DNA of 32,000 bases from Candidatus Saccharimonadota bacterium (GCA_963718045.1 OY970350.1:600001-632000), one strand, 5' to 3'; counted from the first letter of the stretch, positions 3-32,000 are shown. Numbers and translations: made by a program. The notes: generated from the letters alone by a model not told the origin.

Positions 3-722
3 CAAGACTTATCAAATGTCGGGAGTGGCAACTATCCTTCTTTAAATGGCATTAATTGCACCGCCAACGAAAATGGCGGGCAACCTAGTGGCTGCAGTAC
101 TTCTACCCCAATAAATGACACCAGCACAGTTATTGGTGAGGTACTGGCTTTTAATTCCGGTTCTTATACTATCTTGCCGGTAGTTGGCCGGAATTATGTG
201 GCAAATACTAAAGATACCCAAGATGCTACGACCTTTAGCCAAGCTGAACCATGGATAATCTCCAGCACAGCGCAAAGCATAACTATGCCATTTGGTCTTA
301 GGGTCGTTAGCGATCCCTCCGTCACCTCCACCGTTACTTCCCCCACCATCTCACCACCGCCAGGCCTCGGCGCTATTGGGATTTTTAGTTTTACCAGTTT
401 TGAAGGCAATAACTTGGCTAATTCTGGAGAAGCGTTAAGTTCCGGCTCAGAGCACGTTGAAATATTTGCCATCCCTGGTTCAGCGCTTGGTACTAGCCCC
501 ATAGCACTAGTGAATACGCCGCTAACGAATTGTTCTGGCAATTCGGACGATGTTTGCATTAGCACCGCTCAAGCTCAAATGATAAATCCCAGTAACGGTA
601 TAACTTTATGCCTCAATAGCGGGTCTGATACTCAATCGGTCTTTTTTACAATTGGTGGTGGCAGCAACAGCGCCACAAGTGTCAGTGATACTATATATAG
701 TACTTTGGGGTGTCAGTCATGA
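3..722 (+). CDS. Hypothetical Ser/Thr/Gly-rich exported protein, 5'-truncated by the window edge; first visible gene of the pilin-like operon
   Basis: Frame 3 has no stop codon from nt 3 onward, so the track's TTG at 174 is unlikely to be the true start. Stop TGA 720-722 overlaps ATG 719-721 of the next gene (ATGA coupling). No recognisable domain. Confidence 0.5.
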   Translation, partial: QDLSNVGSGNYPSLNGINCTANENGGQPSGCSTSTPINDTSTVIGEVLAFNSGSYTILPVVGRNYVANTKDTQDATTFSQAEPWIISSTAQSITMPFGLRVVSDPSVTSTVTSPTISPPPGLGAIGIFSFTSFEGNNLANSGEALSSGSEHVEIFAIPGSALGTSPIALVNTPLTNCSGNSDDVCISTAQAQMINPSNGITLCLNSGSDTQSVFFTIGGGSNSATSVSDTIYSTLGCQS

Positions 723-1216
723 TGAAACTTTGGCATAAACAAAACGGCGATACCATTATTGAGGTGATGATTTCATTAGCAATTCTGATGCTTGTCCTTG
801 GCGGGGCATATTATACGGCCAGCCAGTCATACCGCAATGACCGTGATTCCCAGGAGCATACTGAAGCTTTAACGATTGCCCAGTCCCAACTTGAAGAGCT
901 AAGGGTTATTGGTTCAATTGCTGCTAACGAGCAATGTATTGGCACTAACCTGACACCTTCAAATGCCTGTGATGTTAATAGTTCTGACACCACGCTTATC
1001 GGCAACGGCAGTCAGTGCACCCCCTATTGTTACACAGTTAAAATTAGTAAGGTGACGTCTACATCAATCACTTATAGCGTTCCTCAACCGCCACCTCCAT
1101 CGGCAGCACCACCAGTTGATCTGAACACCTACGATATTAATGTTACTTGGACAGCTATCGGTGGTACCGGAAAAGATAGCGTCAGTCTATATTACAGAAT
1201 GGATTCGATAAGCTGA
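719..1216 (+). CDS. Prepilin-type N-terminal cleavage/methylation-domain protein (minor pilin, PilV-like)
   Basis: The N-terminus reads MMKLWHKQNG|DTIIEVMISLAILMLVLGG. This is a short basic leader, a Gly, a Glu at +5 and a ~20-aa hydrophobic helix, i.e. a type IV pilin class III signal. The following ALTIAQSQLEEL segment resembles PilV-type minor pilins. ATG 719 overlaps the upstream stop; the track's GTG at 710 is an alternative start. Confidence 0.75.
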   Translation: MMKLWHKQNGDTIIEVMISLAILMLVLGGAYYTASQSYRNDRDSQEHTEALTIAQSQLEELRVIGSIAANEQCIGTNLTPSNACDVNSSDTTLIGNGSQCTPYCYTVKISKVTSTSITYSVPQPPPPSAAPPVDLNTYDINVTWTAIGGTGKDSVSLYYRMDSIS

Positions 1217-1920
1217 TGCGGGCATCCCAAGACGGCTTTACAATTGTTGAGCTGATGATCGCTACAGCGATATTTGCAATCATGCTAGTTTTAACTACAA
1301 CCACTATAATTGGCATCACTCAAACGTATACCAAGGGGTCGGTAGAAGGCCAAACCCAACAAACTGCCAGAGCAGTCTTAAGCGACATTAGCCAGGCTAT
1401 CGAGTTTAACGACAGTAACGATATTACGGTCACCACCAATTCCTCAGGCGATGTTTATTACTTCTGTGCCGGCAGTGATGTTTATGTTTACCAGTTAGAC
1501 AAATACTTGTCGCCAACTTTGACTGGCAGTGAATACTCCACATGGACCCTGGTTAGATTCCCGTATAGCTCCTGTACGGTCCCGCTCAACTCGCTGAATC
1601 AGCCCGACCCGCTAGGTCAGGCTGGTGCCGAAGAACTGCTAACTACTAACGAACGGCTGGGCTGGCTATATATTGTCCCCTTTGCCATTAACGGTGAAAC
1701 CGCCTACACCATCAACCTTGAGATCGGCTACGGTGATAATTCGTTGCTTAACGACACGACCAGCACTAACGGGGGTTATGACGTCAACGCCTTACCGACA
1801 GCTCCGCCAGTTTCCGCCCATTATAAATACAGTTGTCAAAGCGGGCCGGATAGTAGTTTTTGTGCTACTTCAACTTTGACAACTACAGTAATTCCCCGTA
1901 TACCTGGTATAAGTGGTTAA
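1216..1920 (+). CDS. Prepilin-type N-terminal cleavage/methylation-domain protein (minor pilin, PilW-like)
   Basis: The N-terminus MRASQDG|FTIVELMIATAIFAIMLVL is a canonical G|FTxxE prepilin peptidase site followed by a hydrophobic helix. The start overlaps the previous stop by 1 nt (TGATG). Confidence 0.8.
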   Translation: MRASQDGFTIVELMIATAIFAIMLVLTTTTIIGITQTYTKGSVEGQTQQTARAVLSDISQAIEFNDSNDITVTTNSSGDVYYFCAGSDVYVYQLDKYLSPTLTGSEYSTWTLVRFPYSSCTVPLNSLNQPDPLGQAGAEELLTTNERLGWLYIVPFAINGETAYTINLEIGYGDNSLLNDTTSTNGGYDVNALPTAPPVSAHYKYSCQSGPDSSFCATSTLTTTVIPRIPGISG

Positions 1921-3025
1921 GCCGATGTTTAATAAATATTTACACCTAGTAGTTAAATCAGAAAAAGGCTATGCTTCATTTGTTATAACCCTGGTAACTA
2001 TGATTGTTGTTGGCTTAATAGTCGTCGCTTTTGCCACAGATGCCCGCCTTGAACAAAAAGATACACTAGCTAATACCCTAGCTACCCAGGCCTACTATGC
2101 CGCTGAGAGCGGCATTAATGATGCCACGGCCATCATTCAGGACGAGATATCTCATGGGGTAACGCCGCAATCTACAACTAGCGGCCAGTGTAACTCCACG
2201 TCATCAGAATCATACGTTGTCAACGGTAGCAACTACCTATTGGGTAGTAATGGCCAGATTCAATATAACTGTCTGATCGTCAATACCTCACCAAACTCTC
2301 TGAACTACCAAAACCTGAGTCCCGGAATCAGTTGGGTATTTGCCTTAAGTAACGCGAACGCCAGCGATAACATAAGCAGCGTAACCATCAGCTGGTACAA
2401 CCCAGACGCAAAAGGTACTTTCACCGGTTGCCCGAATGTTAGTCTTCCGTCGGCAACTTTCCCGATGTTAAACGTGACCTCGGGCCAAGACTTATCGCCA
2501 TCTAATTGCGGTGCCGGTGTTTTACAGCTAGATATGGTGGCTGATAGCAGCTTGACGGCGAATGCTTCCAGTCCTGGGGATACGGCTTATTTAGAGCCGG
2601 TACAGCATAGTGGCGACGCTGTAGTGGCGCCAGCAGTACCCATTTCCCAAGATGAGGTCTACCTTGTGGAATGTGGCAGTAATGGTGGTCAATATGCTTG
2701 TACCCAGACCATAAATACTCAGCCTGGGCTGCCGGCCGATCATATCTACTATATTCGTTTGCAGTCTTACTATCAGCAAGCTTACGTTTATATAACGGCT
2801 CACGATGCCCAAGGTAACCAACTTAATTTGGTTGGTGCCCAGATATTAATCGATTCTACGGGCCAGGCCAACGGACAACTCAAGAGACTACAGGAAAGGG
2901 TATGTACCGGTAATTACTGCAACAGCAGTGCCTCGGCTGGGGCTATTATATCAACTAAATGTGTCGATAAGGATTTTACTGTCTATCCTGGCGAAAACTC
3001 TGAGAGTCCGACCTGCAACAACTAA
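1913..3025 (+). CDS. PilX-N-terminal-domain-like pilus assembly/minor pilin protein
   Basis: The N-terminal segment EKGYASFVITLVTMIVVGLIVVAF...QAYYAAESGINDA matches my recollection of the PilX_N pattern: G-x-A/S, a hydrophobic helix, then Q-A-x-x-A-A-E-x-G. The start is GTG 1913 or ATG 1925. The gene overlaps the previous gene's 3' end. Confidence 0.6.
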   Translation: MVKPMFNKYLHLVVKSEKGYASFVITLVTMIVVGLIVVAFATDARLEQKDTLANTLATQAYYAAESGINDATAIIQDEISHGVTPQSTTSGQCNSTSSESYVVNGSNYLLGSNGQIQYNCLIVNTSPNSLNYQNLSPGISWVFALSNANASDNISSVTISWYNPDAKGTFTGCPNVSLPSATFPMLNVTSGQDLSPSNCGAGVLQLDMVADSSLTANASSPGDTAYLEPVQHSGDAVVAPAVPISQDEVYLVECGSNGGQYACTQTINTQPGLPADHIYYIRLQSYYQQAYVYITAHDAQGNQLNLVGAQILIDSTGQANGQLKRLQERVCTGNYCNSSASAGAIISTKCVDKDFTVYPGENSESPTCNN

Positions 3026-6000
3026 AGTACGGGCGGCAAACTAGTGATTGCTTGGATGATTGGTTGCTGCGCATAGCCTGGTTCCAGCCAATTAAGCGGC
3101 GAGTAGTCGAATTCTTCGGCATCGTAACAATCCTGGGGAGTTGTGCTGCAGTTTGCTGGCGTTGAATTGTTAGCGGCCGCGCTTAGTGTACCGTAAGTGC
3201 GGTAGAAGTTGATAGCGTTAGCTATGAATGAGCCGTCAATAACCAGACGATCGTGACTGCAGGTATTTTGAGAGCTATTAGTGGTGTAGTCCGCGGCCGG
3301 ACAGATGTCAACACTACCTCCGCCATAGTCATTGATGGTGCCACCGCTGTTAGTAGTAGGGTTAAGTTCAGCAACGTACTCACCAGCTAGGTTCCCGACC
3401 GTCTTACCAATGTTAATATCCGCCCCATTGACAACTACTTCAAAGCTTGGGAGCAGGCTGACGGCTGTGCCAGACGGAATTGCATAGGTAATTGGTTTAG
3501 TAATATTGACTGTGGATTTTGAGTAGCAAGTGTAGTGATCATATTGCTCATTAGGTCCTAAAGTCATACCTGCAATAGTGCCACTGGTCGGGCAAGGACC
3601 AATGTAATCTGTTGGGCCTTGGGATTGGCTGGTTTCGGCTTGGGCATAGTAATCAAAGGAGCCACAGCTCGAGTTCGCAGCAGCACTAGTTGCAAAATCA
3701 CCGCCATACTGCGAGGCCGGGTAGTTAGCAAGCGTAAGCGGAGGTGGGTTAAGCAAATTAAGCACATCTTGTCCCGAAGCAAAGCCATTAATGCTACCGG
3801 TAGCTAGAGCTGATGTTGTCGTGCCGGCACCAAGGTCGCCATTGCCACCCTGATTAAAGCTTTCAATCCCCGACATGCTACCGCCGATGTAGCAAGAGGC
3901 TATGGAGTCACTAGACGTACCTACTATGACATCACCTCCAAAAACTCTCACGTACGGTTGGGCACCTATTGCTGTGGCACAGGCTGATTTGGCTTTGCTG
4001 GTTAGACCGTTATTTGAAGTGATGCTACCCTGGTAATCCATCTGTGTGCCTGTCGGCTTAACATCAACCTCCAGACAGATAGAATCGCCGAATGCTAAAG
4101 GAGGCATACTGACACTATCTGTTTTAGGAATTGCTGTGACGGTTGTACCTGAACAGTTGCCGTTAGGTCCGTAAGTAAAGGTAGTTGAAGCACCGGCCGC
4201 TGGATAGGACACAACCTGACCTGAGGGGGTAATATATGAAACAATATAGGTATTGGTGATGCCCATAACCTGACAGGGGAAATGGACGGCTGTTATCTGC
4301 TTGCTGAGACCGAAAGTTGCATTGACATTAGCCGACATGGTAATGCTGGTTGGATTATCTTCTTCTCCGTTTAAGGAAACAGTCGCATCAGTAACTGCTA
4401 GATGAAAAGTTCTGGCATAACACTCATTTAAGACTGGGGCACCAGCATATGTAGTGTTTGATCCTGTGGCAACTGTGGCACTAGCAGCGTGCCAGTCATA
4501 ATATGGAGTTCCTTTATAGGAGTGTATACAGGTACTGCTGGAGCCGCCGCCGGTGTCGCCAGCGTTACAAGTATAGGAGACCTTTTTACCTGAGACTGTT
4601 TTCTTACCTGTATAGCTGTGTTTACAGGTACTGCTGGAGCCGCCGCCGGTGTCGCCAGCGTTACAAGTATAGCCATCTGGGCTTGACGACGAGTAAAAGC
4701 GAGTTTGGGTAAACCGCTGGTTATATGTCACGGTGGTTGTATGGGGATCGTACGGGTAGTTATTAACGTAATTGGCGTAGTTTAGGGTAAAGACATTAGA
4801 GCTCTGGTAGCCTGTAGGAGCCCAGCTAATTGAGGTACCGCTGCCAACGTATTCGGTATCATCATTGGCGGCACTTATTCCCCAGTCGCCGGGTACCTCT
4901 TGGTAATATTGGGCATTGGGCTGCGTTGTTGTACCCGATTCCCCTCCGCTCCCCTGTGCAGCCCCGCTAACATCCGGATAGTTACCTTGCGGTAAAGTTA
5001 TCGTCGGCTTAGTGTTTTGACCTGGACAACTTACTGATGGTGTAACAGTGAATGTATCGCTACACATAGCCATATCTGGGACATAATTATAATTATTGGA
5101 CTCAACTAGTGCAGTAAGTACGTATGTACCAGTCTGTGACAGGTCACCTGCAGAAATGCTGGCACTGAATTCCGTGTCGCTGTCCGCACTGAAGGATAAA
5201 CTATCAACCTTATTGTTGGGAAGAGTCATAGAAGCGAAAATACCGCTACTACTGACATCAGGCAGACCGCCGCTAACCCAGCTGCCACTAGGCCAGCTAT
5301 ATGTTAGATCTATGTAGGCTGTGGCTGGAGTACTCACAGTCGGTGTTGCCGGATCGGTGTCGTCAGTACAGGCTATCGTACCAGTGGAAGTAATTATGAT
5401 GTCATAACCATCATTATGAGCACAGTTACCACTGCCGCTAGCACTTGCTATCTGGCCAGGATAGTATCCATTAGTTGAGATTGCCCCTGATGTACAAGAG
5501 GTCTGAGGGCTTGTCGGCGGCCCGGTGTCATTGGGATTAATAAAGGCTGTATCCATGCCAGCGACATTATCTACTCTAATACAGAAGTTTGTTGTATCTG
5601 GTATGGTAATTGAAAAATAGCCAGTGCTGTCGACCGTCGCAGTATCTTTACCGCTTAAAGTGCTGCATGAATTATACATTATTACTGCCTGTGTAGCCGC
5701 CGACACGGAAACACCGTTATAGGTATGGACATAGCCGGAGATGGTTACGCCGTTTGTAAATGAATAATTACACTGGACCATATCTGGAACATAGTTATTG
5801 CTAGACCAGACAAAGGCGGTAAGTGTATATGAACCAGTCTGCGACAGATTACCTGCAGAAATACTGGCACTGAATTCTGTGTCGCTGTCTTGAGTATAAG
5901 ACAAAGTATCCGAGTTAAGGTCGGGCAGGGTTAGATAAGAGTCAATATCACTAGTGGTGACATCAGGCAGACCGCCGCTAACCCAGCTGCCGCTTGCCCA

Positions 6001-7857
6001 GCTATCTGTTAGATATATATAGGCTGTGGCTGAAGTATTAACAGTCGGTGCTGCCGGATTGGTGTCGTCAGTACAGGCTATCGTACCAGTGGAAGTAATT
6101 ATGATGTCATAACCATCATTATGAGCACAGTTGCCACTGCCGCTAGTACTTGCAGTCTGGCCAGTATAGTAGGTGGTGTGTGAGTTACAAGAGGGCTGAG
6201 GGCTTGTTGGCGGCCCGGTGTCATTGGGATTAATCTGGACTGTGTCTACACCACTGGTGTCATTGGTTACCTGAACACAGTAAGATTTCCCAACAGGTAC
6301 TGGAAATGAAAAATAACCAGCGCCATTGACCGGTACCGTACCGTCTGCGGTGTAACATGATTTTACATAAGCCTGTGTAGCCGCTGATACGGAAACACCG
6401 TTATAGGTCTGGACATAGCCGGAGATAGTTACGCCGGTTGGCGTAATAGTGAACGATGTACTACACGTAGCCAGATTATCAACATACAGATTATTGGATA
6501 GGGCATCTGCGTTAAGTATATATGAACCAGTCTGCGACAGGTCGCCCGCGGTAATATTGTAATTATAACTTGTGCTTGCAATATAAGATAAAGTGTCAGA
6601 AGAGCCAGTTGGAGGAGTTAGTGAAGCGGAAACATTACCACTAGTGACATCAGGCAGACCGCCGGTAACCCAGCTGCCATTAGGCCAGGTAGCAGTCACG
6701 CCTACATCTGCCGTAGCAGAAGTATTTATAGTCGGAGTAGTTGGATCAGTAGAGACAGTACAGGCTATTGTACCAGTGGAAGTAATTATGATGTCATAAC
6801 CATCATTATGAGCACAGTTACCACTGCCGCTAACACTTGCTGTCTGGCCAGTATAGTAGGAAGTATGCGAGTTACAAGAGGGCTGAGGGCTTGTCGGCGG
6901 TCCGGTGTCATTGGGATTAATCTGGACTGTGTCTACACCGGCGGCATTGGTTACCTGAACGCAGTAAGAATCGCCGCTGGGTACTGGAAATGAAAAATAA
7001 CCAGCGCCATTGACCGGTACCGTACCGTCTGGAGCGTAACATGAACCTACATAAGCCTGTGTAGCCGCCGTTGGACTATCAACACCGTTATAAGTTTGGA
7101 CATAGCCGGAGATAGTTACTACGGGAGGTTGCAATTGAGTCAATGTGCCTACAGGGTTAGCACAAGAATGCTTAATAATATAATCACCATCTTGGCTATG
7201 GAAAATAATGGCCGGTGTTACACCACTACCCTGACCTACATATAAATTAATGTCGTACTTGTAGCTTGCATCTTCGTCGGCAGCAGTGTTATCGGTATAA
7301 GAATAGTTCGATGTATTAAAATTAATTTCACCTATCGAATCATAATAATTAACCGCGTCCACCCAACAGTTTTCAGTGGAGGTATCAGCTTTTGGATCTG
7401 TTGCATAAGAACATGGCTGACTATCGCTAAAAACAGTGGCGCAGGCACGCTGACCACCGCCAGAGTTACCTTCCACCATACTGGCCATAATAAAAGCCGC
7501 ACCAACGCCTTCCCATGTCTGTAGATCGGTAGCGTCTGCGGCATTACAGAACGTATTAACATATCCGGTTAATTCATCTTCAAGATCTGTGGCATTAGTA
7601 GCACATATAGCTTCACCACAGCTTGTTACATCTTGACCGTTATACACGCTTGGTAAAACATCGTCACAATCGCCCTTCGCGGCATTACACTGAGTTGCTT
7701 GGCCGTTAAAATACCCGCAACCCGTACTTGAAAAGTTGCAGGCCGCATAGGTTTTGGGGCTGTTATGATATACGGTTACATAAACAAATGAAGTGACAAC
7801 TAAAGCGAAGATTACTAAATATTTTAAGATCCTCTTTTCTCTCAGTATGTGTTTCAT
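3022..7857 (-). CDS. Giant (1611 aa) Cys-rich, N-terminally membrane-anchored modular surface protein; putative adhesin
   Basis: This is a single uninterrupted ORF. The N-terminus MKHILREKRILKYLVIFALVVTSFVYVTVY looks like a signal-anchor, with no prepilin motif and no LPXTG motif. It contains three tandem ~229-aa modules that each begin with a CarboxypepD_reg/SdrD-B-like ISGYVxTYNGV...GYFSFxVP strand pattern. Composition is Thr/Ser/Gly/Asn-rich with many conserved Cys residues. Confidence 0.85.
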   Translation of the reverse strand: MKHILREKRILKYLVIFALVVTSFVYVTVYHNSPKTYAACNFSSTGCGYFNGQATQCNAAKGDCDDVLPSVYNGQDVTSCGEAICATNATDLEDELTGYVNTFCNAADATDLQTWEGVGAAFIMASMVEGNSGGGQRACATVFSDSQPCSYATDPKADTSTENCWVDAVNYYDSIGEINFNTSNYSYTDNTAADEDASYKYDINLYVGQGSGVTPAIIFHSQDGDYIIKHSCANPVGTLTQLQPPVVTISGYVQTYNGVDSPTAATQAYVGSCYAPDGTVPVNGAGYFSFPVPSGDSYCVQVTNAAGVDTVQINPNDTGPPTSPQPSCNSHTSYYTGQTASVSGSGNCAHNDGYDIIITSTGTIACTVSTDPTTPTINTSATADVGVTATWPNGSWVTGGLPDVTSGNVSASLTPPTGSSDTLSYIASTSYNYNITAGDLSQTGSYILNADALSNNLYVDNLATCSTSFTITPTGVTISGYVQTYNGVSVSAATQAYVKSCYTADGTVPVNGAGYFSFPVPVGKSYCVQVTNDTSGVDTVQINPNDTGPPTSPQPSCNSHTTYYTGQTASTSGSGNCAHNDGYDIIITSTGTIACTDDTNPAAPTVNTSATAYIYLTDSWASGSWVSGGLPDVTTSDIDSYLTLPDLNSDTLSYTQDSDTEFSASISAGNLSQTGSYTLTAFVWSSNNYVPDMVQCNYSFTNGVTISGYVHTYNGVSVSAATQAVIMYNSCSTLSGKDTATVDSTGYFSITIPDTTNFCIRVDNVAGMDTAFINPNDTGPPTSPQTSCTSGAISTNGYYPGQIASASGSGNCAHNDGYDIIITSTGTIACTDDTDPATPTVSTPATAYIDLTYSWPSGSWVSGGLPDVSSSGIFASMTLPNNKVDSLSFSADSDTEFSASISAGDLSQTGTYVLTALVESNNYNYVPDMAMCSDTFTVTPSVSCPGQNTKPTITLPQGNYPDVSGAAQGSGGESGTTTQPNAQYYQEVPGDWGISAANDDTEYVGSGTSISWAPTGYQSSNVFTLNYANYVNNYPYDPHTTTVTYNQRFTQTRFYSSSSPDGYTCNAGDTGGGSSSTCKHSYTGKKTVSGKKVSYTCNAGDTGGGSSSTCIHSYKGTPYYDWHAASATVATGSNTTYAGAPVLNECYARTFHLAVTDATVSLNGEEDNPTSITMSANVNATFGLSKQITAVHFPCQVMGITNTYIVSYITPSGQVVSYPAAGASTTFTYGPNGNCSGTTVTAIPKTDSVSMPPLAFGDSICLEVDVKPTGTQMDYQGSITSNNGLTSKAKSACATAIGAQPYVRVFGGDVIVGTSSDSIASCYIGGSMSGIESFNQGGNGDLGAGTTTSALATGSINGFASGQDVLNLLNPPPLTLANYPASQYGGDFATSAAANSSCGSFDYYAQAETSQSQGPTDYIGPCPTSGTIAGMTLGPNEQYDHYTCYSKSTVNITKPITYAIPSGTAVSLLPSFEVVVNGADINIGKTVGNLAGEYVAELNPTTNSGGTINDYGGGSVDICPAADYTTNSSQNTCSHDRLVIDGSFIANAINFYRTYGTLSAAANNSTPANCSTTPQDCYDAEEFDYSPLNWLEPGYAQQPIIQAITSLPPVL
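4527..4672 (-). repeat. Perfect 50-nt direct repeat (2 copies, 96-nt period) inside the giant gene
   Basis: Positions 4527-4576 and 4623-4672 are identical (tacaggtactgctggagccgccgccggtgtcgccagcgttacaagtatag). They encode the twin motif YTCNAGDTGGGSSSTC(K/I)HSY. Confidence 0.9.
5040..7119 (-). repeat. Three tandem intragenic modules (~684-687 nt each) inside the giant gene
   Basis: The module starts (VTISGYV codons) lie at nt 7119, 6432 and 5748. Long perfectly identical DNA tracts link the modules. One is 72 nt (5356-5427 = 6061-6132). A 63-nt tract starting at 5378 in module 3 (gtaccagtgg...ccactgccgcta) recurs in module 1 around 6770-6832. Confidence 0.9.
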
Positions 7858-7906
7858 CTTTAAATCAAGTGATTTCTTGTTTTTAGTATAACAAACATAA
7901 ACATAT

Positions 7907-10433
<2,527 letters not shown>

Positions 10434-13159: not shown

Positions 13160-14311
13160 TCAGCTTAACTTTAACAGGCTTTTTAGGGTATCCAGGGTGT
13201 ACTCCAGGTCGGATTTGGTTAAATATCTGCCAAATGAGAAGCGGATAGAGCTTCTAGCTTCCAAGTTCGTAAGACCAATAGCTTTTAGAACGCTTGAGGG
13301 CAGCTCATTTGAGGCACTGCAGGCTGATCCTGCCGCTGCCATAATACCCTTTTCATCTAAAGAGATTAAAAGCCATTCATTGTCTATGCCCGGAAAAGTA
13401 ACGTGGACGTTATTTACTACCCTTTTTGTCCTTGAGCCGTTAATTTTAGCACTTTGGAAGTTATTAGTCAGACTGGTTATGAAATATTCCTGAAGGTGTG
13501 CTAGTCTGTCTGATTCGGACTTTTTGTTATCTTGGGCTAAATCAAGAGCCGCTGCAAAACCAATTATTCCTGGCACATTTTCAGTGCCGCTCCGAAGGCC
13601 TCTTTCCTGTCCGCCGCCAAATATGACGGGCTTTAAACGGACACTGCTCCGAGCAAATAAGGTGCCGCTTTGCTTGGGGCCATATATTTTACTGCCGTTT
13701 AGAGTCATAAGATCAACACCGAGTTTAGAGATATGCAGGTCCAGATAGTTAGCTGCCTGGCAGGCATCAGTGTGGAAATAGATTGGTCTAGTTATACCTC
13801 GGCTGAGTCTGTCTTTCCTGACAGTTTGAACTGCACTTGCCACCTCTTTTAGCGGCTCAATGACCCCTATTTCGTTGCTAACGTAGATGATGCTGACTAG
13901 ATTTGTGTCATCGTCTATTAAGTCTTTAAGTTTGTTAATCTTAATCAGGCCTTCTTTATCTACCGGGCAGATACGGGCATTAAAGTTCTTAGCCGGGACA
14001 TAAACGGACGGATGTTCAATAGCTGATATAACCATATTGCCATTAGGATGGGCATTCATAACACCAGTAATTGCCAGGTTATTTGCTTCAGTGCCGCCAG
14101 CGGTAAAAATTATTTCTGAAGATTTAGCACCTAGATTTAGGGCCACACTGCGGCGGCTATCTTCAATAACTGATCTGACGTCTTTGGCTTTAGAGTAGGC
14201 AGCTGATGGGTTGAAAAACTGTTTAGAAAAGTATGGCTCCATAGCCTTAATGACCTTAGGGTCCATTGGTGTGGAGGCGGCATAGTCTAAATAGACGGTT
14301 TTTTGGGGCAT
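13160..14311 (-). CDS. iscS: Cysteine desulfurase, group I (NifS/IscS-like), PLP-dependent
   Basis: Motifs seen are YLDYAASTP, FTAGGTEANN, HTDACQA, a PLP-Lys context LNGSKIYGPKQSG, RSGTENVPGIIG, and an active-site Cys in AAGSACSAS (group I SSGSAC type). Confidence 0.85.
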   Translation of the reverse strand: MPQKTVYLDYAASTPMDPKVIKAMEPYFSKQFFNPSAAYSKAKDVRSVIEDSRRSVALNLGAKSSEIIFTAGGTEANNLAITGVMNAHPNGNMVISAIEHPSVYVPAKNFNARICPVDKEGLIKINKLKDLIDDDTNLVSIIYVSNEIGVIEPLKEVASAVQTVRKDRLSRGITRPIYFHTDACQAANYLDLHISKLGVDLMTLNGSKIYGPKQSGTLFARSSVRLKPVIFGGGQERGLRSGTENVPGIIGFAAALDLAQDNKKSESDRLAHLQEYFITSLTNNFQSAKINGSRTKRVVNNVHVTFPGIDNEWLLISLDEKGIMAAAGSACSASNELPSSVLKAIGLTNLEARSSIRFSFGRYLTKSDLEYTLDTLKSLLKLS

Positions 14312-17764: not shown

Positions 17765-19018
17765 TCAGGCTAGGCGGTCAATATACTCCTGGCATAATCT
17801 TTCAAAGACAGAATTAGTCCAGCCGAAGCCTTCCTGGGACGGATAAACTCCTTTAACCGGCGGCTTATCTGGTGATACGACGTTATATTTCTCTAAAAAT
17901 ATGCCGTGGTCGTTAAACCAGCTTAGGTTAGTTTTAAGCCATTTCATGGCAATCCGCCTAGCCTCTTTGTGAAAGCCGTAGCGTTCCAGTCCTTTTATAG
18001 TCAGGTAGTGAAGTGGTGCCCAGCCGTTTGGAAAGGCCCACTGTGTTGGCATGCCGCCAAAAACAAACTGGCCGACAGGCAGAGAATCAGTAGCTGCTAG
18101 ACCGCCCTTATGCTCAAACCTCTGAAGGGCTTTAACTAAGGCTCTAGCCTGGTCCTTATCTGCCATACCGGCCCAAAGCGGGTAGTAGCTGGCCAGTGAT
18201 ATGACCGTACCTCTTTTTTCACGAACATAGTTATAGTCAAAATATAGGCCTTTAGACTTGTCCCACATCAGGTCGTCCATCTTCAGTTTGCGCTGACTTG
18301 CCTTATCTTCCCACTGGGCCTCTTCCCTTTTATTTCCCAGTATTTTAGCGGCCCGGGCGAAGTCTGCCTCGTATTTATATAAAAGGGCATTTAAATCAAC
18401 CGGCAGATAATTTAAGGCTTTATGGCTAAAGCGGGGTGTGAGATCCCAGCCGCTTTCAGCTTCAGCTAAATCGTTTAGGTAGTTGATGTCATAATACCTG
18501 GAAAGTCCCTGGTATACCTGGTGGGCAACTGGTTTATTAACTCCCATCCAGACTCCTTGGTATTCGGCCTTGGCTGTTTCAATGTGCTCTTTAAACCATT
18601 TGTTATCCATATCATATGCCTTATATACATCGAATATGAAAGATGTTAAAAAGGGCGGCTGGGAGCGGCCCATAAGGTACGTCCTTGAAGCGTTTGGGAT
18701 AATGCCGAATCTTTTGAATAGATAAATCAGGTTGTCTAACATGCCTATAATGAGATCTTTATGTTCCGCGTCCAGTAGTCCCTGAATCATGAAATAACTG
18801 TCCCAGTAATACATTTCGTTAAAATCAAACTCAGTTTTCTCATTGAATGCCGGCACTAAATACGGATGCGGCAGTCCGAGTAAACTCTCGTCATCTTTTG
18901 GGTGAAAGCGAGTAACCTGGGGCCAATAATCCTCAATATATTTACGGGCAGCTGCAACCTGTTCGGGCTTTAACTCTATGTCCGGTCTAAATGTAAATAT
19001 TTTTTTCGGGTTTATCAT
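17765..19018 (-). CDS. Alpha,alpha-trehalase (GH37-like), apparently cytoplasmic
   Basis: GH37 signature-like motifs are FNEMYYWDSYFMIQGL, GRSQPPFL, ESGWDLTPRF and PTQWAFPNGWAPLH. No N-terminal signal peptide is visible. Confidence 0.8.
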   Translation of the reverse strand: MINPKKIFTFRPDIELKPEQVAAARKYIEDYWPQVTRFHPKDDESLLGLPHPYLVPAFNEKTEFDFNEMYYWDSYFMIQGLLDAEHKDLIIGMLDNLIYLFKRFGIIPNASRTYLMGRSQPPFLTSFIFDVYKAYDMDNKWFKEHIETAKAEYQGVWMGVNKPVAHQVYQGLSRYYDINYLNDLAEAESGWDLTPRFSHKALNYLPVDLNALLYKYEADFARAAKILGNKREEAQWEDKASQRKLKMDDLMWDKSKGLYFDYNYVREKRGTVISLASYYPLWAGMADKDQARALVKALQRFEHKGGLAATDSLPVGQFVFGGMPTQWAFPNGWAPLHYLTIKGLERYGFHKEARRIAMKWLKTNLSWFNDHGIFLEKYNVVSPDKPPVKGVYPSQEGFGWTNSVFERLCQEYIDRLA

Positions 19019-20616: not shown

Positions 20617-21429
20617 TTATACACTATTTCGTTGCCTTTGGCAATCTAGTGTATTCAGTTTTATTAGTAGCTCCTGCCATTCCTGCAAATTGAGAGTCTG
20701 AGGCCTTCTTTTTGGATCAATGCCAGCATCCTGGAGTATGTTTTTAACTATCTCTTTATCTTGTCTAAAGCCGCTGCTTAAGTTGTTTAATATTGTTTTA
20801 CGCTTAGAGACAAAAGCAATTTTAATTAGCTTAAACAATTCTTTTATTTCTCGGTCAGAAAGAGTTATTGCGTTCGGTGTCAGCTTAATTATCTGGGATG
20901 TTACCTTTGGCGGCGGAATAAACTTATCTGGCGTTACTAACGGTCCTTTTAAAGCGTCCCAGTAAAATTGGCAGGTTAGACCTAAGATAGACATATCTCC
21001 GGGCAGGGCAGCTAACCTATCGGCTATTTCTTTTTGGACTAAGAGGACAACAAGTTCAGGTCTATATGCAGTTTCGCTAATGAGTTTTATTATCTTGCCT
21101 GTTAGATAATATGGGATATTGGCTACCAGCTTATATTTACCTAATTCAGACAGGTCATAGTTTAATATGTCTTCATTAACTATTTGAACATTAGAAAGAT
21201 TAAGTGCAGTTAGTTTTTTGATCAGTGAAGTGTCTAGCTCAATAGCAATTACTTTGTTGGCCTTAGCGCTTAACAGTTTGGTTAGCCTGCCTGTTCCTGG
21301 TCCAATTTCAAGAATTGTGTCCTTGGAGGATATATCTGCTAAATCAGTAATGTTTTCAAGAATACCCTGGTCTGCCAGCCAGTGCTGGCCTAGCGATTTG
21401 CGAGCTTTAGGTTCATCACCAGTTGCCAT
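20617..21429 (-). CDS. rsmA: 16S rRNA (adenine1518/1519-N6)-dimethyltransferase
   Basis: Motifs seen are KSLGQHWL (canonical LGQNFL), the SAM motif ILEIGPGTGRLT, and ANIPYYLT (canonical NLPYNIS/T). Confidence 0.9.
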   Translation of the reverse strand: MATGDEPKARKSLGQHWLADQGILENITDLADISSKDTILEIGPGTGRLTKLLSAKANKVIAIELDTSLIKKLTALNLSNVQIVNEDILNYDLSELGKYKLVANIPYYLTGKIIKLISETAYRPELVVLLVQKEIADRLAALPGDMSILGLTCQFYWDALKGPLVTPDKFIPPPKVTSQIIKLTPNAITLSDREIKELFKLIKIAFVSKRKTILNNLSSGFRQDKEIVKNILQDAGIDPKRRPQTLNLQEWQELLIKLNTLDCQRQRNSV

Positions 21430-22696
21430 AGTCTATCCAGTGTATATAGGCGTCATACCAATCACCAAACTTTGTCTGAGCATACCAGTTACACCATTCA
21501 AGCTGGGTAATTGGGTCGGTCTGCCAATCAGCGCCAAACTCAGCCATTTTATCTGGTGGAGTAGATTGACATAATCCGTAGCCTACATCGTCGTCGTTAG
21601 CATAAAGCTGGCTGAAGCCAGCTGGACAATAGCCAATCTCACCCTGCCATTTAGTTGGACACCAGCCTGACTCATGAGAAACAATGAAATCGACATAAGA
21701 ATAATTGGCTGGAGAGATACCAGCTAGTGACATGTCTCCCTGGATACCAGACAAACTATCCCCTTCATCCACTATCTCTGTAACTGGAGGTACGGTCACA
21801 ATTGTTTGGATTGGTGAAGAAGGGTCTAGAATTGTGCCGTAAGGGGATAATTCATAGGCAGCGACTTCTTTTCCGGGTGATCCTTGCTGAACTATTGAAC
21901 TAGTACCATAAGCTAGATCGGAAACGTATGTAGTCTGGACGGGGGTGGCGATGGACTGGGTAACGATCTCTGTTTTAATACCTGATCTACTGATACTAAC
22001 TTGTTCGTTAGGACTTATTGATGAGTTTAGACTAGGGGTAACTTGGTCTTCTGAAGTTAACTGTATGTTCTCTTGGCTTATAACCTCAGCTACTGTAGAA
22101 GCGTGAACATAGAGCGGTAGATCAGTACCATATAGATCAAGGACTATGGGTATACCCGATTCAATAATAACCTGCCGGCCGATAGCATCGCTGGCTAAAA
22201 AGTTTTCACCGGGCTGAGAGGTGACGTAGTCTGAGGCTGTGGCAATGACACCTACCTGGCTGGCAATTGCTCTCGGAGTTGTGGCAGCACTAAAAGAATA
22301 GTAGACGACACCATCTTTAACTATTTCAACTGGTACAGCCCGGTAGATATTAATTCTAAAGTCGTCCTGGTCAATTGGCGTGTTTAAGTTTGGCTGGACA
22401 ACGTCACCAGTGTGGAGATGAATATCTAATCTAGATAAAAGGTCACCAACTGTTTTATCGTCACTGGGAACTATTTGTTTTACGCCGGCATCGGTAATAA
22501 TAACTATCTTAGAATCAGGTGTTACCTGGATTTGTTTGGCATTACCGAAGAATAATACAAAAGCAATCGTCAAAAGGATTAGGCAAAAGCCTGTAATAAC
22601 AGGAACGGCAAAAGGATGCTTGCTTAGTACTTTAAGCCGCTTGAAATCTATACGGCTTTTGCGCCTTGATTTGACCCCGTCTAATTTAAATTTCAT
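21416..22696 (-). CDS. DUF348/G5-domain cell-wall protein with a C-terminal transglycosylase-like domain (YabE/RpfB-like architecture)
   Basis: An N-terminal TM helix is followed by three ubiquitin-like DUF348-type repeats (..TVGDLLSRLDIHLHTGDVVQP..). A G5-like segment follows (..YGTSSIVQQGSPGKEVAAYEL). The C-terminus SHESGW...GYGLCQ...FGDWYDAYIHWIDYGNW resembles the RESGG..YGxxQ..YGSW..A..FW..GWY family. It lies adjacent to rsmA, as in Firmicutes and Actinobacteria. Confidence 0.75.
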   Translation of the reverse strand: MKFKLDGVKSRRKSRIDFKRLKVLSKHPFAVPVITGFCLILLTIAFVLFFGNAKQIQVTPDSKIVIITDAGVKQIVPSDDKTVGDLLSRLDIHLHTGDVVQPNLNTPIDQDDFRINIYRAVPVEIVKDGVVYYSFSAATTPRAIASQVGVIATASDYVTSQPGENFLASDAIGRQVIIESGIPIVLDLYGTDLPLYVHASTVAEVISQENIQLTSEDQVTPSLNSSISPNEQVSISRSGIKTEIVTQSIATPVQTTYVSDLAYGTSSIVQQGSPGKEVAAYELSPYGTILDPSSPIQTIVTVPPVTEIVDEGDSLSGIQGDMSLAGISPANYSYVDFIVSHESGWCPTKWQGEIGYCPAGFSQLYANDDDVGYGLCQSTPPDKMAEFGADWQTDPITQLEWCNWYAQTKFGDWYDAYIHWIDYGNW

Positions 22697-30150: not shown

Positions 30151-30665
30151 CCTATTTTATTGTGTATGAAGTAGTAGCTTGAAGCAGTACTTGCAGGCAT
30201 TATCCGCGTATCAACCTCGTCAAAACCAACTCTATTCATTTCTGAAATAGTCCAACTACCATTATCAGGATTGACACTCTCAACAAATGCCACGTGACCT
30301 AGCCCGCCAGGTGCATTAACGTCAACCATGATTGCCGTGTAGCTTGGTGTTTGATCGACTAAATAACCGTCAGCTTGGGCTCTGACAGCCCAAGTTATGG
30401 CGTTGCCCCAGGTATTAGGGATAGGCTCCCCTGCTTTTGCCCGAAGAAGTGACACCCAATAGGTACAGTTGCCGAATGCATAGTCATCATTAGCAGCTAA
30501 TGGTCCTTCGTATAGATATATATCCATGTTTGGGCCAGAAGACGAGGAGCCAGCCAGAACAAGTAGATTAGTCAAAGAGGACAGTGTAATTATTGGCAGA
30601 AGCAATAATGTGATAAGAACCGCTGCAGCTATACCGCTATATAACTTTATGTTACTTTTTAGCAT
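30147..30665 (-). CDS. Membrane-anchored CHAP-domain peptidoglycan hydrolase (T4SS-associated)
   Basis: It has an N-terminal TM helix. The CHAP catalytic context is FGNCTYWV (Cys) and GLGHVAFVESV (His) with ISEMN. It overlaps the VirB4-like gene by 14 nt. Confidence 0.8.
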   Translation of the reverse strand: MLKSNIKLYSGIAAAVLITLLLLPIITLSSLTNLLVLAGSSSSGPNMDIYLYEGPLAANDDYAFGNCTYWVSLLRAKAGEPIPNTWGNAITWAVRAQADGYLVDQTPSYTAIMVDVNAPGGLGHVAFVESVNPDNGSWTISEMNRVGFDEVDTRIMPASTASSYYFIHNKIG

Positions 30666-32000
30666 ATAGCTCGCTAGGATCTGTTGTTATTAGCGGATGC
30701 TCACTGTTTGATGCCACTATCTTAACCGCCACGTGCGTTTGGTCAACAATCATAAGACTGTCACCTCGTTCAGTTGTAAGCAGGTAATTTCTTTCAAATT
30801 CGCTTAGATTAAACTCACTGACAACGTTCTTAATAGTTGTCGAATCCTGGCGCATTAAGATTCTAAGAGCACTTTGCGAAGCAATTGCCCGGCCGTATTT
30901 ATTGTTTAAAAAGTCATTGGCTTGCTGGGATATGATTGATACGCCCAGGTAATATTTCCTCGCCCTCCTAACTAGACCGGCAATAAATCTGGCACTATCT
31001 TCATGTTCTAAAAGCAGCCAGCCTTCATCTATTATTAGAAGTCTCTTACTAGGTTCAGCTTTAATCTGATTGGATACAAAGTTAGCTATTATTAACATCA
31101 TCACTTGCCGCAAACTTTCCGGTATGTCCTTTATATCGAAAACAATTAGACGGTTAGTTAGTTTAATGTTCGTCGGTGAATTAAAGACTTCTGACATTGA
31201 GCCGTTGACGTACTTGTCCAGTCTCTCGGTTAATTTTGTTTGGCTTAGTTTTCCTAATTCGGTATATAGATCGCTAAGCAACGGCGCAGTTGACTGGTTT
31301 GTTTTTAGTACCGCTAAAAGTGCTTTGTCTACCATAGACCTTTCACGAGCTGAAAGACCTTCGGCAAGCAAAGATATTATGTCGGTGACGTTATCTATAT
31401 GCTCACTTTGCTGTTTTTTATTTAAGCTGGCTGCCAATGGGTCAAGCGGGTTAATTCTTTGTTTTGATCTTAAAGACAGTTTAATATATGTGCCCTTTAC
31501 CGACTGGCTGAGGTTTAGATATTCTCTTTCAGGATCAATGACTATTACTTTCGTACCATTAGTTAGCTGTCTTAATATTTCAACTTTAGTCAGATAGCTT
31601 TTACCGCTGCCTGATTGGGCAAAGACTATAGAATTAGCATTCGGCAAAGAGAAACGGTCAATAATAACCAGCGAATCGTTAGACTTATTTATACCAAACA
31701 ATATGCCGCTGGGCTGGACTAGTTCAGACGACATAAATGGAAATGTCAGAGCGGCAGATGAACTATCTAAGTTTCGTTTATATTCAAGTTCATCCGTTGC
31801 CCTGGGTAAGACTGATTGAAGGGCAGCTAATTGCTCGTACCTTGCTGGCTTAGTTAGGAATAGTCTTGAAGACATTGTCGATTCTAGCAGAGTGGTTATT
31901 CTGTCCAATTCACTTAGGTCTTTTGCTCTTAGGGCAACGTAAATACTTATTTGGAAAAGCTTCTCTTGTCCTCTTAAGATTTTGTCTCTTAGTTCAATGG
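30652..32000 (-). CDS. virB4: VirB4/TraE-family type IV secretion ATPase, 5'-truncated by the window edge
   Basis: Walker A is AQSGSGKSY and Walker B is LLIIDEGW. GVSIISQQANDF is a further family motif. The frame stays open from the track's TTG (31908) to nt 32000, so the N-terminal part lies outside the window. Confidence 0.8.
   Translation of the reverse strand, partial: IELRDKILRGQEKLFQISIYVALRAKDLSELDRITTLLESTMSSRLFLTKPARYEQLAALQSVLPRATDELEYKRNLDSSSAALTFPFMSSELVQPSGILFGINKSNDSLVIIDRFSLPNANSIVFAQSGSGKSYLTKVEILRQLTNGTKVIVIDPEREYLNLSQSVKGTYIKLSLRSKQRINPLDPLAASLNKKQQSEHIDNVTDIISLLAEGLSARERSMVDKALLAVLKTNQSTAPLLSDLYTELGKLSQTKLTERLDKYVNGSMSEVFNSPTNIKLTNRLIVFDIKDIPESLRQVMMLIIANFVSNQIKAEPSKRLLIIDEGWLLLEHEDSARFIAGLVRRARKYYLGVSIISQQANDFLNNKYGRAIASQSALRILMRQDSTTIKNVVSEFNLSEFERNYLLTTERGDSLMIVDQTHVAVKIVASNSEHPLITTDPSELYAKK

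Follow-up and report, generated by a model that had tools for sequence, protein, structure and literature searches.

Saccharibacteria are ultrasmall bacteria that live attached to other bacteria. The closest described counterparts of the protein analyzed here are PilY1 of Pseudomonas and Myxococcus and PilC1/PilC2 of Neisseria and Kingella, large Sec-exported non-pilin adhesins of the type IV pilus (T4P) tip that are encoded beside minor pilins, combine a conserved C-terminal with a variable N-terminal part and have proposed roles in pilus assembly as well as adhesion. In Nanosynbacter lyticus TM7x, T4P mediate host binding and twitching, and a proposed adhesin of this strain, PilX2, has been likened to PilY1 (PMC12206443). 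PilX1 and PilX2 are T4P-linked, carry extra domains, are proposed to bind the host, lack a canonical PilD signal and are described as pilin-like "lollipops" with an N-terminal hydrophobic helix and a C-terminal jelly-roll or beta-propeller (PMC12206443). Here we analyze a gene for a 1611-amino acid (aa) protein in a 32,000-nt stretch of DNA from a bacterium of the same phylum, Candidatus Saccharimonadota (GCA_963718045.1 OY970350.1:600001-632000; hereafter the window). On the sequence criteria given below, this large, cassette-bearing protein falls into an undescribed family of secreted Saccharimonadales (Saccharibacteria/TM7) proteins (hereafter the family), whose genes are repeatedly found next to T4P genes.

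The family protein is an analogue of PilY1/PilC and not a member of that group, because it lacks the PilY1 domain, the propeller and the vWA domain. The PilY1/PilC domain (Pfam Neisseria_PilC family) gave no match in the window protein, in 40 full-length members or in 76 core domains of the family. The predicted model of the conserved C-terminal core consists of short-strand, beta-solenoid-like repeats instead of a seven-bladed propeller, and a Foldseek search of the PDB with this model finds no PilY1/PilC. Unlike PilY1, the protein lacks a vWA domain, and in most relatives its gene lies upstream of pilM and not inside a fimU-pilVWX-type operon. We know of no PilY1 counterpart of its LPPVL terminus. 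It differs from PilX1/PilX2 in having a Sec-type signal peptide, no pilin helix and a conserved domain that is C-terminal, and its gene is separate from that of the adjacent PilX_N pilin (mp4, see below). Gram-positive MSCRAMM-type stalk adhesins (Cna-B/SdrD-B/prealbumin-like) share with it tandem, in its case putatively beta-sandwich, modules of varying copy number, and the family gives weak matches to CarboxypepD_reg, SdrD_B and SpaA_2; however, it has neither an LPXTG sorting signal nor a C-terminal membrane anchor, whereas MSCRAMMs have no pilus-linked C-terminal domain.

The initial annotation had placed a single ~4.8-kb open reading frame (ORF) between a pilin operon and the ATP synthase operon, and our analysis confirms it. 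Its features are as follows (coordinates in the window).

3022..7857, minus strand: family gene, ATG start, 1611 aa, a lone ORF
7744..7857, minus strand: predicted signal peptide, aa 1-38, with a basic n-region, a hydrophobic stretch at aa 13-30 and a predicted signal peptidase I site KTYA↓A
7123..7743, minus strand: Cys-rich N-terminal domain, aa 39-245, closing with IIKHSCANPVG
6436..7122, minus strand: module 1, aa 246-474, opening with a putative CarboxypepD_reg-like beta-sandwich (TISGYV...), to which the NPNDTGPPTSPQ...SGSGNCAHNDGYDIIITSTGTIACT core and a second half are joined in this order
5752..6435, minus strand: module 2, aa 475-702
5038..5751, minus strand: module 3, aa 703-940
3991..5037, minus strand: conserved middle region, aa 941-1289, with a YPYD motif and a predicted all-beta structure of beta-sandwich domains
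4624..4665 and 4528..4569, minus strand: twin Cys hairpins CNAGDTGGGSSSTC, aa 1065-1078 and aa 1097-1110
3025..3990, minus strand: family core domain, aa 1290-1611, with a PYVRVFGGDV start and a SLPPVL tail (nt 3025-3042)

Thr, Ser, Gly, Ala and Asn make up 50% of the protein, charged residues are very few and there are 47 Cys. An exhaustive HMMER search with aa 412-1611 as the query, with clusters at 50% identity, found at least 259 homologous cluster representatives of the C-terminal region at E ≤ 1e-3, 34 of them at E ≤ 1e-30. Nearly all matches were limited to the last ~330 to 680 residues of the query and were C-terminal in the targets likewise. Word-indexed searches, whose candidate list is probably crowded by the T/S/G-rich sequence, returned 2, 7 and 17 proteins, each of them either unnamed or "hypothetical". 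All family records with names come from Candidatus Saccharimonadales/Saccharibacteria genomes assembled from metagenomes. Sequence searches of Pfam, NCBIfam, PHROGs and the PDB with the whole protein, 40 full-length members and 76 core domains yielded nothing significant, and a literature search of incomplete coverage found no description of the family. The initial annotation had described the C-terminal region as ~600 aa with no recognized motif; the lack of a library match held, but the region spans ~670 aa, defines the family and is linked to pilus genes. In the sequence searches, the terminal domains matched no intracellular enzyme family; the annotation had regarded homology of this kind as a point against a surface role.

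The family core comprises ~320 aa. It begins with PYxKxFGGDV, contains several conserved Cys and blocks such as IPSFxLVVxGNIYI...VTQLDGxYVAE...GGxIxTC, and ends in the LPPVL tail. The C-terminal sequence [SG]LPP[VI]L is present in ~130 of the top 151 homologues, and core positions P319 and P320 are invariant in the 76 aligned core domains. The middle region (aa 941-1289) is also kept in many members; the twin CxxxxxxxxxxxxC motif noticed earlier is the CNAGDTGGGSSSTC hairpin at aa 1065 and 1097, which recurs in P0007, P0012 and P0016. Members range from 339 to 1835 aa in length (median 812), and the smallest (339-395 aa) consist of a signal peptide joined directly to the core and nothing else; therefore, the core carries the basic function. 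The window protein has all the features by which the family is defined: the signal peptide, the core (PYVRVFGGDV...SLPPVL) and adjacency to T4P genes.

In the window, the family gene lies between the following neighbors.

3..722, plus strand: minor pilin mp1, cut by the window edge, with a phmmer match to mp1 of locus L001
710..1216, plus strand: minor pilin mp2, 168 aa, N-terminal methylation motif, Pfam N_methyl over the cut-off (26.1 bits)
1216..1920, plus strand: minor pilin mp3, 234 aa, N-terminal methylation motif DGFTIVEL, Pfam N_methyl over the cut-off (28.3 bits)
1913..3025, plus strand: minor pilin mp4, 370 aa, PilX_N type, convergent with the family gene
7907..8278, minus strand: atpC, Pfam ATP-synt_DE_N, E=1.2e-12, which closes the ATP synthase operon and is given as context outside the proposed system

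The full mp1 gene, as seen in L001, encodes 296 aa with the N-terminus GAGFTIVETMIFLAISG; N_methyl is over the Pfam cut-off in its L066 counterpart and weaker in those of L005 and L012. The PilX_N match of mp4 in the window is weak (E=0.011), and its counterparts in L005, L012, L015, L017 and L066 pass the Pfam cut-off. By these profiles, mp4 is recognizable as a true PilX_N pilin and mp1-mp3 as N_methyl prepilins. The stop codons of mp4 and the family gene overlap as CTAA (3022-3025).

To assess the association with pilus genes, we examined 81 related loci, 4 from species-representative genomes (found by a scan with a 5-sequence alignment) and 77 from metagenomes. The loci were gathered via conserved core-domain peptides only, and all their ORFs were searched with the four lineage pilins and with pilM, pilN, pilB, pilT, pilC and pilA from one locus. 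Since the flanks played no part in collecting the loci, the linkage is no artefact of the search. In ~70 of the 81 loci, the family gene is either directly upstream of a pil operon or stop-to-stop with a four-gene minor-pilin operon. At ~54 loci, the family gene and pilM share a strand, with pilM beginning at most 300 nt downstream; next in line are pilN, a pilO-sized gene, an ~82-aa ORF, pilB, pilT, pilC and pilA. The same order is found in T4P locus one of N. lyticus TM7x (PMC12206443). Another 7 loci have pilM at a distance of 0.6-3.2 kb downstream, the interval being occupied by toxin-antitoxin genes or a second copy of the family gene. A further 8 loci, together with L008, L009, L001, L002 and the window, have the convergent minor-pilin operon stop-to-stop with the family gene or within ~70-400 nt of it. 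The mp1-mp4 operon is stop-to-stop in the window, L001, L002, L003, L008, L009 and L010 and within ~70-400 nt in L005, L012, L013, L015 and L017. An intermediate order, with the family gene followed by mp4-mp1 on the opposite strand and then by pilM-pilN-pilB, occurs in L005, L012 and L015. In L009, the family gene and the minor pilins form a pair in other surroundings, with no atp operon and only an 80-aa atpC-like remnant. L039 is the sole locus with a long flank and no pilus gene. The initial annotation had suggested that the protein may function with the adjacent pilins and had named a lack of linkage in related genomes as evidence to the contrary; the family instead lies beside T4P genes across ~80 loci in several arrangements. 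A functional link of the family to T4P is thus likely.

Several other features of these loci were observed. An ~80-aa atpC-like ORF upstream of the family gene (L003:3592-3834, L009:8695-8937) looks like a rearrangement remnant. The conserved ORF of ~79-95 aa between the pilO-sized gene and pilB is present in nearly every locus (e.g., L022), at the position of TM7x_00430. Two same-strand family copies per locus occur in L004, L008/L011, L053, L058, L068 and L070; the two copies in L008, P0004 (1060 aa) and P0005 (1059 aa), have differing N-terminal regions. In one Saccharimonadales genome, toxin-antitoxin genes (PemK, PIN x3, YafQ) flank the family gene, including on the side toward pilM (L007:3779-9315 and 13393-14002).

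In ~45 loci (e.g., L022:6276-6872, L023:2271-2855, L031:6346-6945 and L016:5026-5622), the end of an ORF of ~170-220 aa abuts the start of the family gene. In its product, a TPR-like helical domain (sub-threshold TPR_1/2/8 matches) comes after a single transmembrane (TM) segment. At loci with duplicated family genes (L008, L053, L068, L070), every copy is accompanied by a small partner of its own. The partner might act specifically for the family protein, as a membrane anchor or chaperone. The family gene of the window has no such neighbor. The lineages nearest to the window have a different upstream partner of 331-343 aa with a single TM segment and no Pfam match (L008:1524-2549, L009:8994-10004, L003:3891-4901, L030:5200-6195, L042:5196-6227), which is conserved among those loci (E=1e-27 to 1e-196).

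The initial annotation had called the N-terminus a signal-anchor. A cleaved Sec signal peptide is more likely, because A38, the last residue before the predicted cleavage site, is nearly invariant in a 40-member family alignment and no second TM segment was found in the 157 full-length members. Other members have AXA-like sites at the equivalent place, and 142 of the 157 carry an N-terminal hydrophobic stretch; none has a class III prepilin motif. In the window protein itself, no TM-like segment besides aa 13-30, no LPXTG-type motif and no class III prepilin motif was detected, and for the class III signal both a regular-expression search and the Pfam N_methyl model were negative. The earlier statement that the LPXTG and prepilin motifs are missing was thus borne out. 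We rejected a pilin-like protein because the class III signal and N_methyl are absent, and a sortase-anchored one because there is no LPXTG-like motif and no C-terminal TM segment, the C-terminus being ...SLPPVL. At the level of motifs and profiles, these searches establish an export signal and the absence of a membrane, sortase or pilin-type anchor, and the protein is very likely secreted. Patescibacteria, the candidate phyla radiation (CPR), have MdbA/VKOR-type extracytoplasmic disulfide systems (PMC6744442), a point we set beside the 47 Cys of the protein in favor of export.

The N-terminal part of the protein is built of a Cys-rich domain and three tandem modules, both of which agree with the initial annotation. 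The Cys-rich domain, reported at ~245 aa, has 11 Cys within aa 40-232. It represents a recurrent cassette (consensus GAAFII...IKxxCGNPxG) found in about one-fifth of family members, and the motif K..C[GA]N[PFL] is at a similar position in 28 of 151 homologues; searches with its profile and with 18 N-terminal domains gave no Pfam or PDB match. The modules open with ISGYV at aa 249, 478 and 706 and each contain both strictly conserved core strings, NPNDTGPPTSPQ at aa 314, 543 and 774 and SGSGNCAHNDGYDIIITSTGTIACT at aa 343, 572 and 807. DNA identity among the three is 72-79%, as determined by alignment; the 687-nt module period exceeds the 500-nt limit of Tandem Repeats Finder, which reported no repeat. 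The CarboxypepD_reg/Cna-B-like nature proposed for the modules found less backing: the window protein has a sub-threshold NOMO1-like beta-sandwich match (E=0.016), and only single homologues match CarbopepD_reg_2, CarboxypepD_reg, SdrD_B and SpaA_2, so that a prealbumin/CarboxypepD_reg-like assignment is weak. In the variable regions of other members, CARDB, CarboxypepD_reg, SdrD_B and SpaA_2 domains are found, which are typical adhesin stalk folds.

Comparison of close relatives points to exchange of this N-terminal part. P0001, the family protein of L001, is 87% identical to the window protein and has 1384 aa and two modules instead of three, one module being missing. The L003 protein is 77% identical over aa 937-1611, and its first 350 aa are unrelated to the first 936 aa of the window protein; the break is right where the conserved region begins. 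Against L010 (86% identical overall), synonymous divergence (dS) is 0.47 in the N-terminal domain and module 1 and 0.13-0.22 elsewhere, which indicates a mosaic history. Judged from these alignments, the N-terminal region is swapped between close relatives on a conserved C-terminal base. In the same comparison, the ratio of nonsynonymous to synonymous divergence (dN/dS) is 0.23 for the core, compared with 0.42-0.55 for modules 1 and 3; on these estimates, the family gene is under purifying selection that is tightest in the core.

The left 8 kb of the window, pilin genes included, had been described as more GC-rich than the rest. The GC content is indeed 0.46-0.50 for kb 1-7, 0.43 for kb 8 and ~0.35-0.46 elsewhere in the window. 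At codon position 2, it is 0.53 in the family gene, 0.44-0.48 in the pilin genes and ~0.30-0.42 in the other non-pilin genes of the window; at codon position 3 (GC3), the family gene has 0.41, which matches the rest of the window. The shift is therefore an effect of Thr/Ser/Gly/Ala/Pro-rich composition. It does not reflect foreign DNA, and we rejected horizontal transfer as its origin because GC3 is normal.

The structure of the C-terminal region was predicted with AlphaFold2. For aa 935-1611 (12 sequences), confident all-beta domains were obtained at aa ~945-1295 (predicted local distance difference test, pLDDT, ~80), and the core was not modeled. When the core was predicted separately (54 sequences), the predicted template modeling score (pTM) was 0.71, residues 110-230 had pLDDT >90, residues ~245-265 were also confident, and these parts consist of many short strands; the last 14 residues are disordered. 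For the aa ~945-1295 domains, Foldseek found only generic Ig/FnIII-like sandwiches in the PDB, one of them an adhesin repeat, and for the core model nothing significant in the PDB or among viral models. The weak PDB matches of the core are mostly beta-solenoids, namely ice-binding proteins, bactofilin, an autotransporter and the pilus protein ComZ, and the modeled core probably has a beta-solenoid-like fold. ComZ of Thermus thermophilus (PDB 6QVI) is a pilus-associated competence pilin with a large beta-solenoid insert and is proposed to be at the tip; its match to the core is nonsignificant (E ~7, TM 0.15), and it has a class III signal, which the family protein lacks. Weak matches to DUF7305 (PF23981) were seen in 10 of the 76 core domains, aligning core positions ~155-274 with profile positions 80-170, all far under the gathering cut-off of 27 bits (best E=0.009; 10-12 bits in the two shown); the window protein has no match. 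A remote relationship to DUF7305 is possible; the literature search, incomplete as noted, found no mention of this domain.

Taken together, these results lead us to propose, with somewhat better than even confidence, that the family protein is a pilus-associated secreted protein that plays a PilY1/PilC-like role with unrelated domains, a conserved docking/assembly core being combined with exchangeable adhesive heads. The protein would be exported by Sec and its signal peptide removed, with no membrane, sortase or pilin-type anchor to hold it. The conserved aa 941-1611, chiefly the ~320-aa core with its LPPVL tail, would tie it to the pilus system, most plausibly by docking onto the complex of minor pilins mp1-mp4, the PilX_N pilin among them, which serves to prime and cap the filament. 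The variable N-terminal part, here the Cys-rich domain and three beta-sandwich modules, would face outward and bind the surface of the host bacterium, and its exchange would tune host specificity. Physical attachment to the pilus, location at its tip and adhesion are thus what we infer, and not with equal confidence. An adhesive or host-recognition role of the N-terminal part has about even chances, since export, adhesin-type beta-sandwich modules and N-terminal swapping between close relatives point to it; the same three features underlie the adhesin or host-interaction protein proposed in the initial annotation. Docking at the pilus tip through the core is a tentative suggestion. Equally speculative is the broader idea that the family may be an unrecognized standard part of the pilT-containing, T4P-1-type pilus of environmental Saccharibacteria, a secreted adaptor whose core and LPPVL tail plug into the minor-pilin tip complex or the TPR-like partner and whose recombining N-terminal cassettes set the host.

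Several points weigh against this proposal. All the results are computational, and there is no direct evidence for pilin or host binding. In the window, the family gene trails the atp operon on the same strand, so that co-transcription with it is possible, and small, stable genomes can preserve gene order without a functional link. In the cultured oral Southlakia epibionticum, ychF lies upstream of pilM. The T4P inventory of TM7x contains no such protein, and its locus starts at pilM (PMC12206443); the family may be absent from the only genetically tested Saccharibacteria. The core was modeled only in part, with a mean pLDDT of 69 and values <50 for the tail and ~90 residues, and neither its structure nor its sequence significantly matches PilY1/PilC or any other pilus protein. 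Finally, members made up of a signal peptide and the core cannot adhere via an N-terminal head, so that the family may at base serve pilus assembly or envelope passage instead of adhesion.

The last point leads to the view that the protein is no adhesin but belongs to the pilus machine as a structural or assembly component, one that aids filament start or passage through the wall/S-layer without a secretin, or counteracts retraction, the long N-terminal regions being secondary. Core-only members are still directly upstream of pilM, the family gene is usually first or second in the pilM-to-pilA operon and not in the pilin operon, the membrane-anchored TPR-like partner directly upstream in ~45 loci recalls pilotin/assembly factors, and Patescibacteria lack PilQ (PMC6744442). 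We nevertheless consider this view unlikely, as it leaves unexplained the long (up to 1835 aa), modular, swapped and faster-evolving N-terminal regions; it is also compatible with the PilY1/PilC-like role and does not exclude it. The C-terminal domain of PilY1 is likewise needed for pilus biogenesis.

Somewhat less likely still is a free-standing surface or S-layer-associated adhesin that is co-regulated with pili and unattached to them, held by its C-terminal domain, e.g., via the upstream TPR protein or the cell wall. The protein is exported, Cys-rich and built of beta-sandwich modules, its conserved C-terminal domain closes with an invariant peptide that could act as a retention signal, and a transposon sequencing (Tn-seq) study of Southlakia proposes close-range adhesins besides T4P (PMC10633639). 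However, tight adjacency to pil genes repeated in several arrangements and joint relocation with the minor-pilin operon are more than co-regulation usually needs, and no match to known wall-binding or S-layer domains was found. A secreted toxin, effector or enzyme aimed at the host cell, similar to polymorphic toxins, is very improbable. The protein is large, secreted and modular, but its C-terminus is conserved and its N-terminus variable, the reverse of polymorphic toxins, and no enzyme or toxin family was matched in Pfam, NCBIfam, PHROGs or the PDB. An RHS/YD toxin was rejected because the RHS_repeat match is a single sub-threshold repeat (E=0.034) and the polarity of conservation is wrong.

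The remaining observations concern the surroundings of the gene. It begins 49 nt after the end of atpC, which lies upstream on the same strand; most family members elsewhere do not adjoin atp genes. The gap (7858-7906) holds TGTTATACT, which resembles an extended -10 element, and no obvious Shine-Dalgarno sequence. Transcription of the family gene may start at a separate promoter or run on from the atp operon; a promoter and terminator scan did no better than with shuffled sequence. Other genes of the window, all on the minus strand, encode a TraG/VirB4-like P-loop ATPase that may belong to a type IV secretion system (30652-31908), a G5/DUF348 protein (21416-22696) and a trehalase (17765-19018).

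How ultrasmall episymbionts, Saccharibacteria and other Patescibacteria, recognize and hold their hosts is an open question. T4P are required, but little has been learned about which components confer specificity, and that from one oral strain only. The present analysis makes the family protein a strong candidate for a swappable host-binding part of the pilus. If this is true, the family would add at least two protein domains that are missing from the libraries searched here, Pfam and NCBIfam, and would be a concrete, testable candidate for a host-range determinant in the far larger environmental branch of Saccharibacteria.

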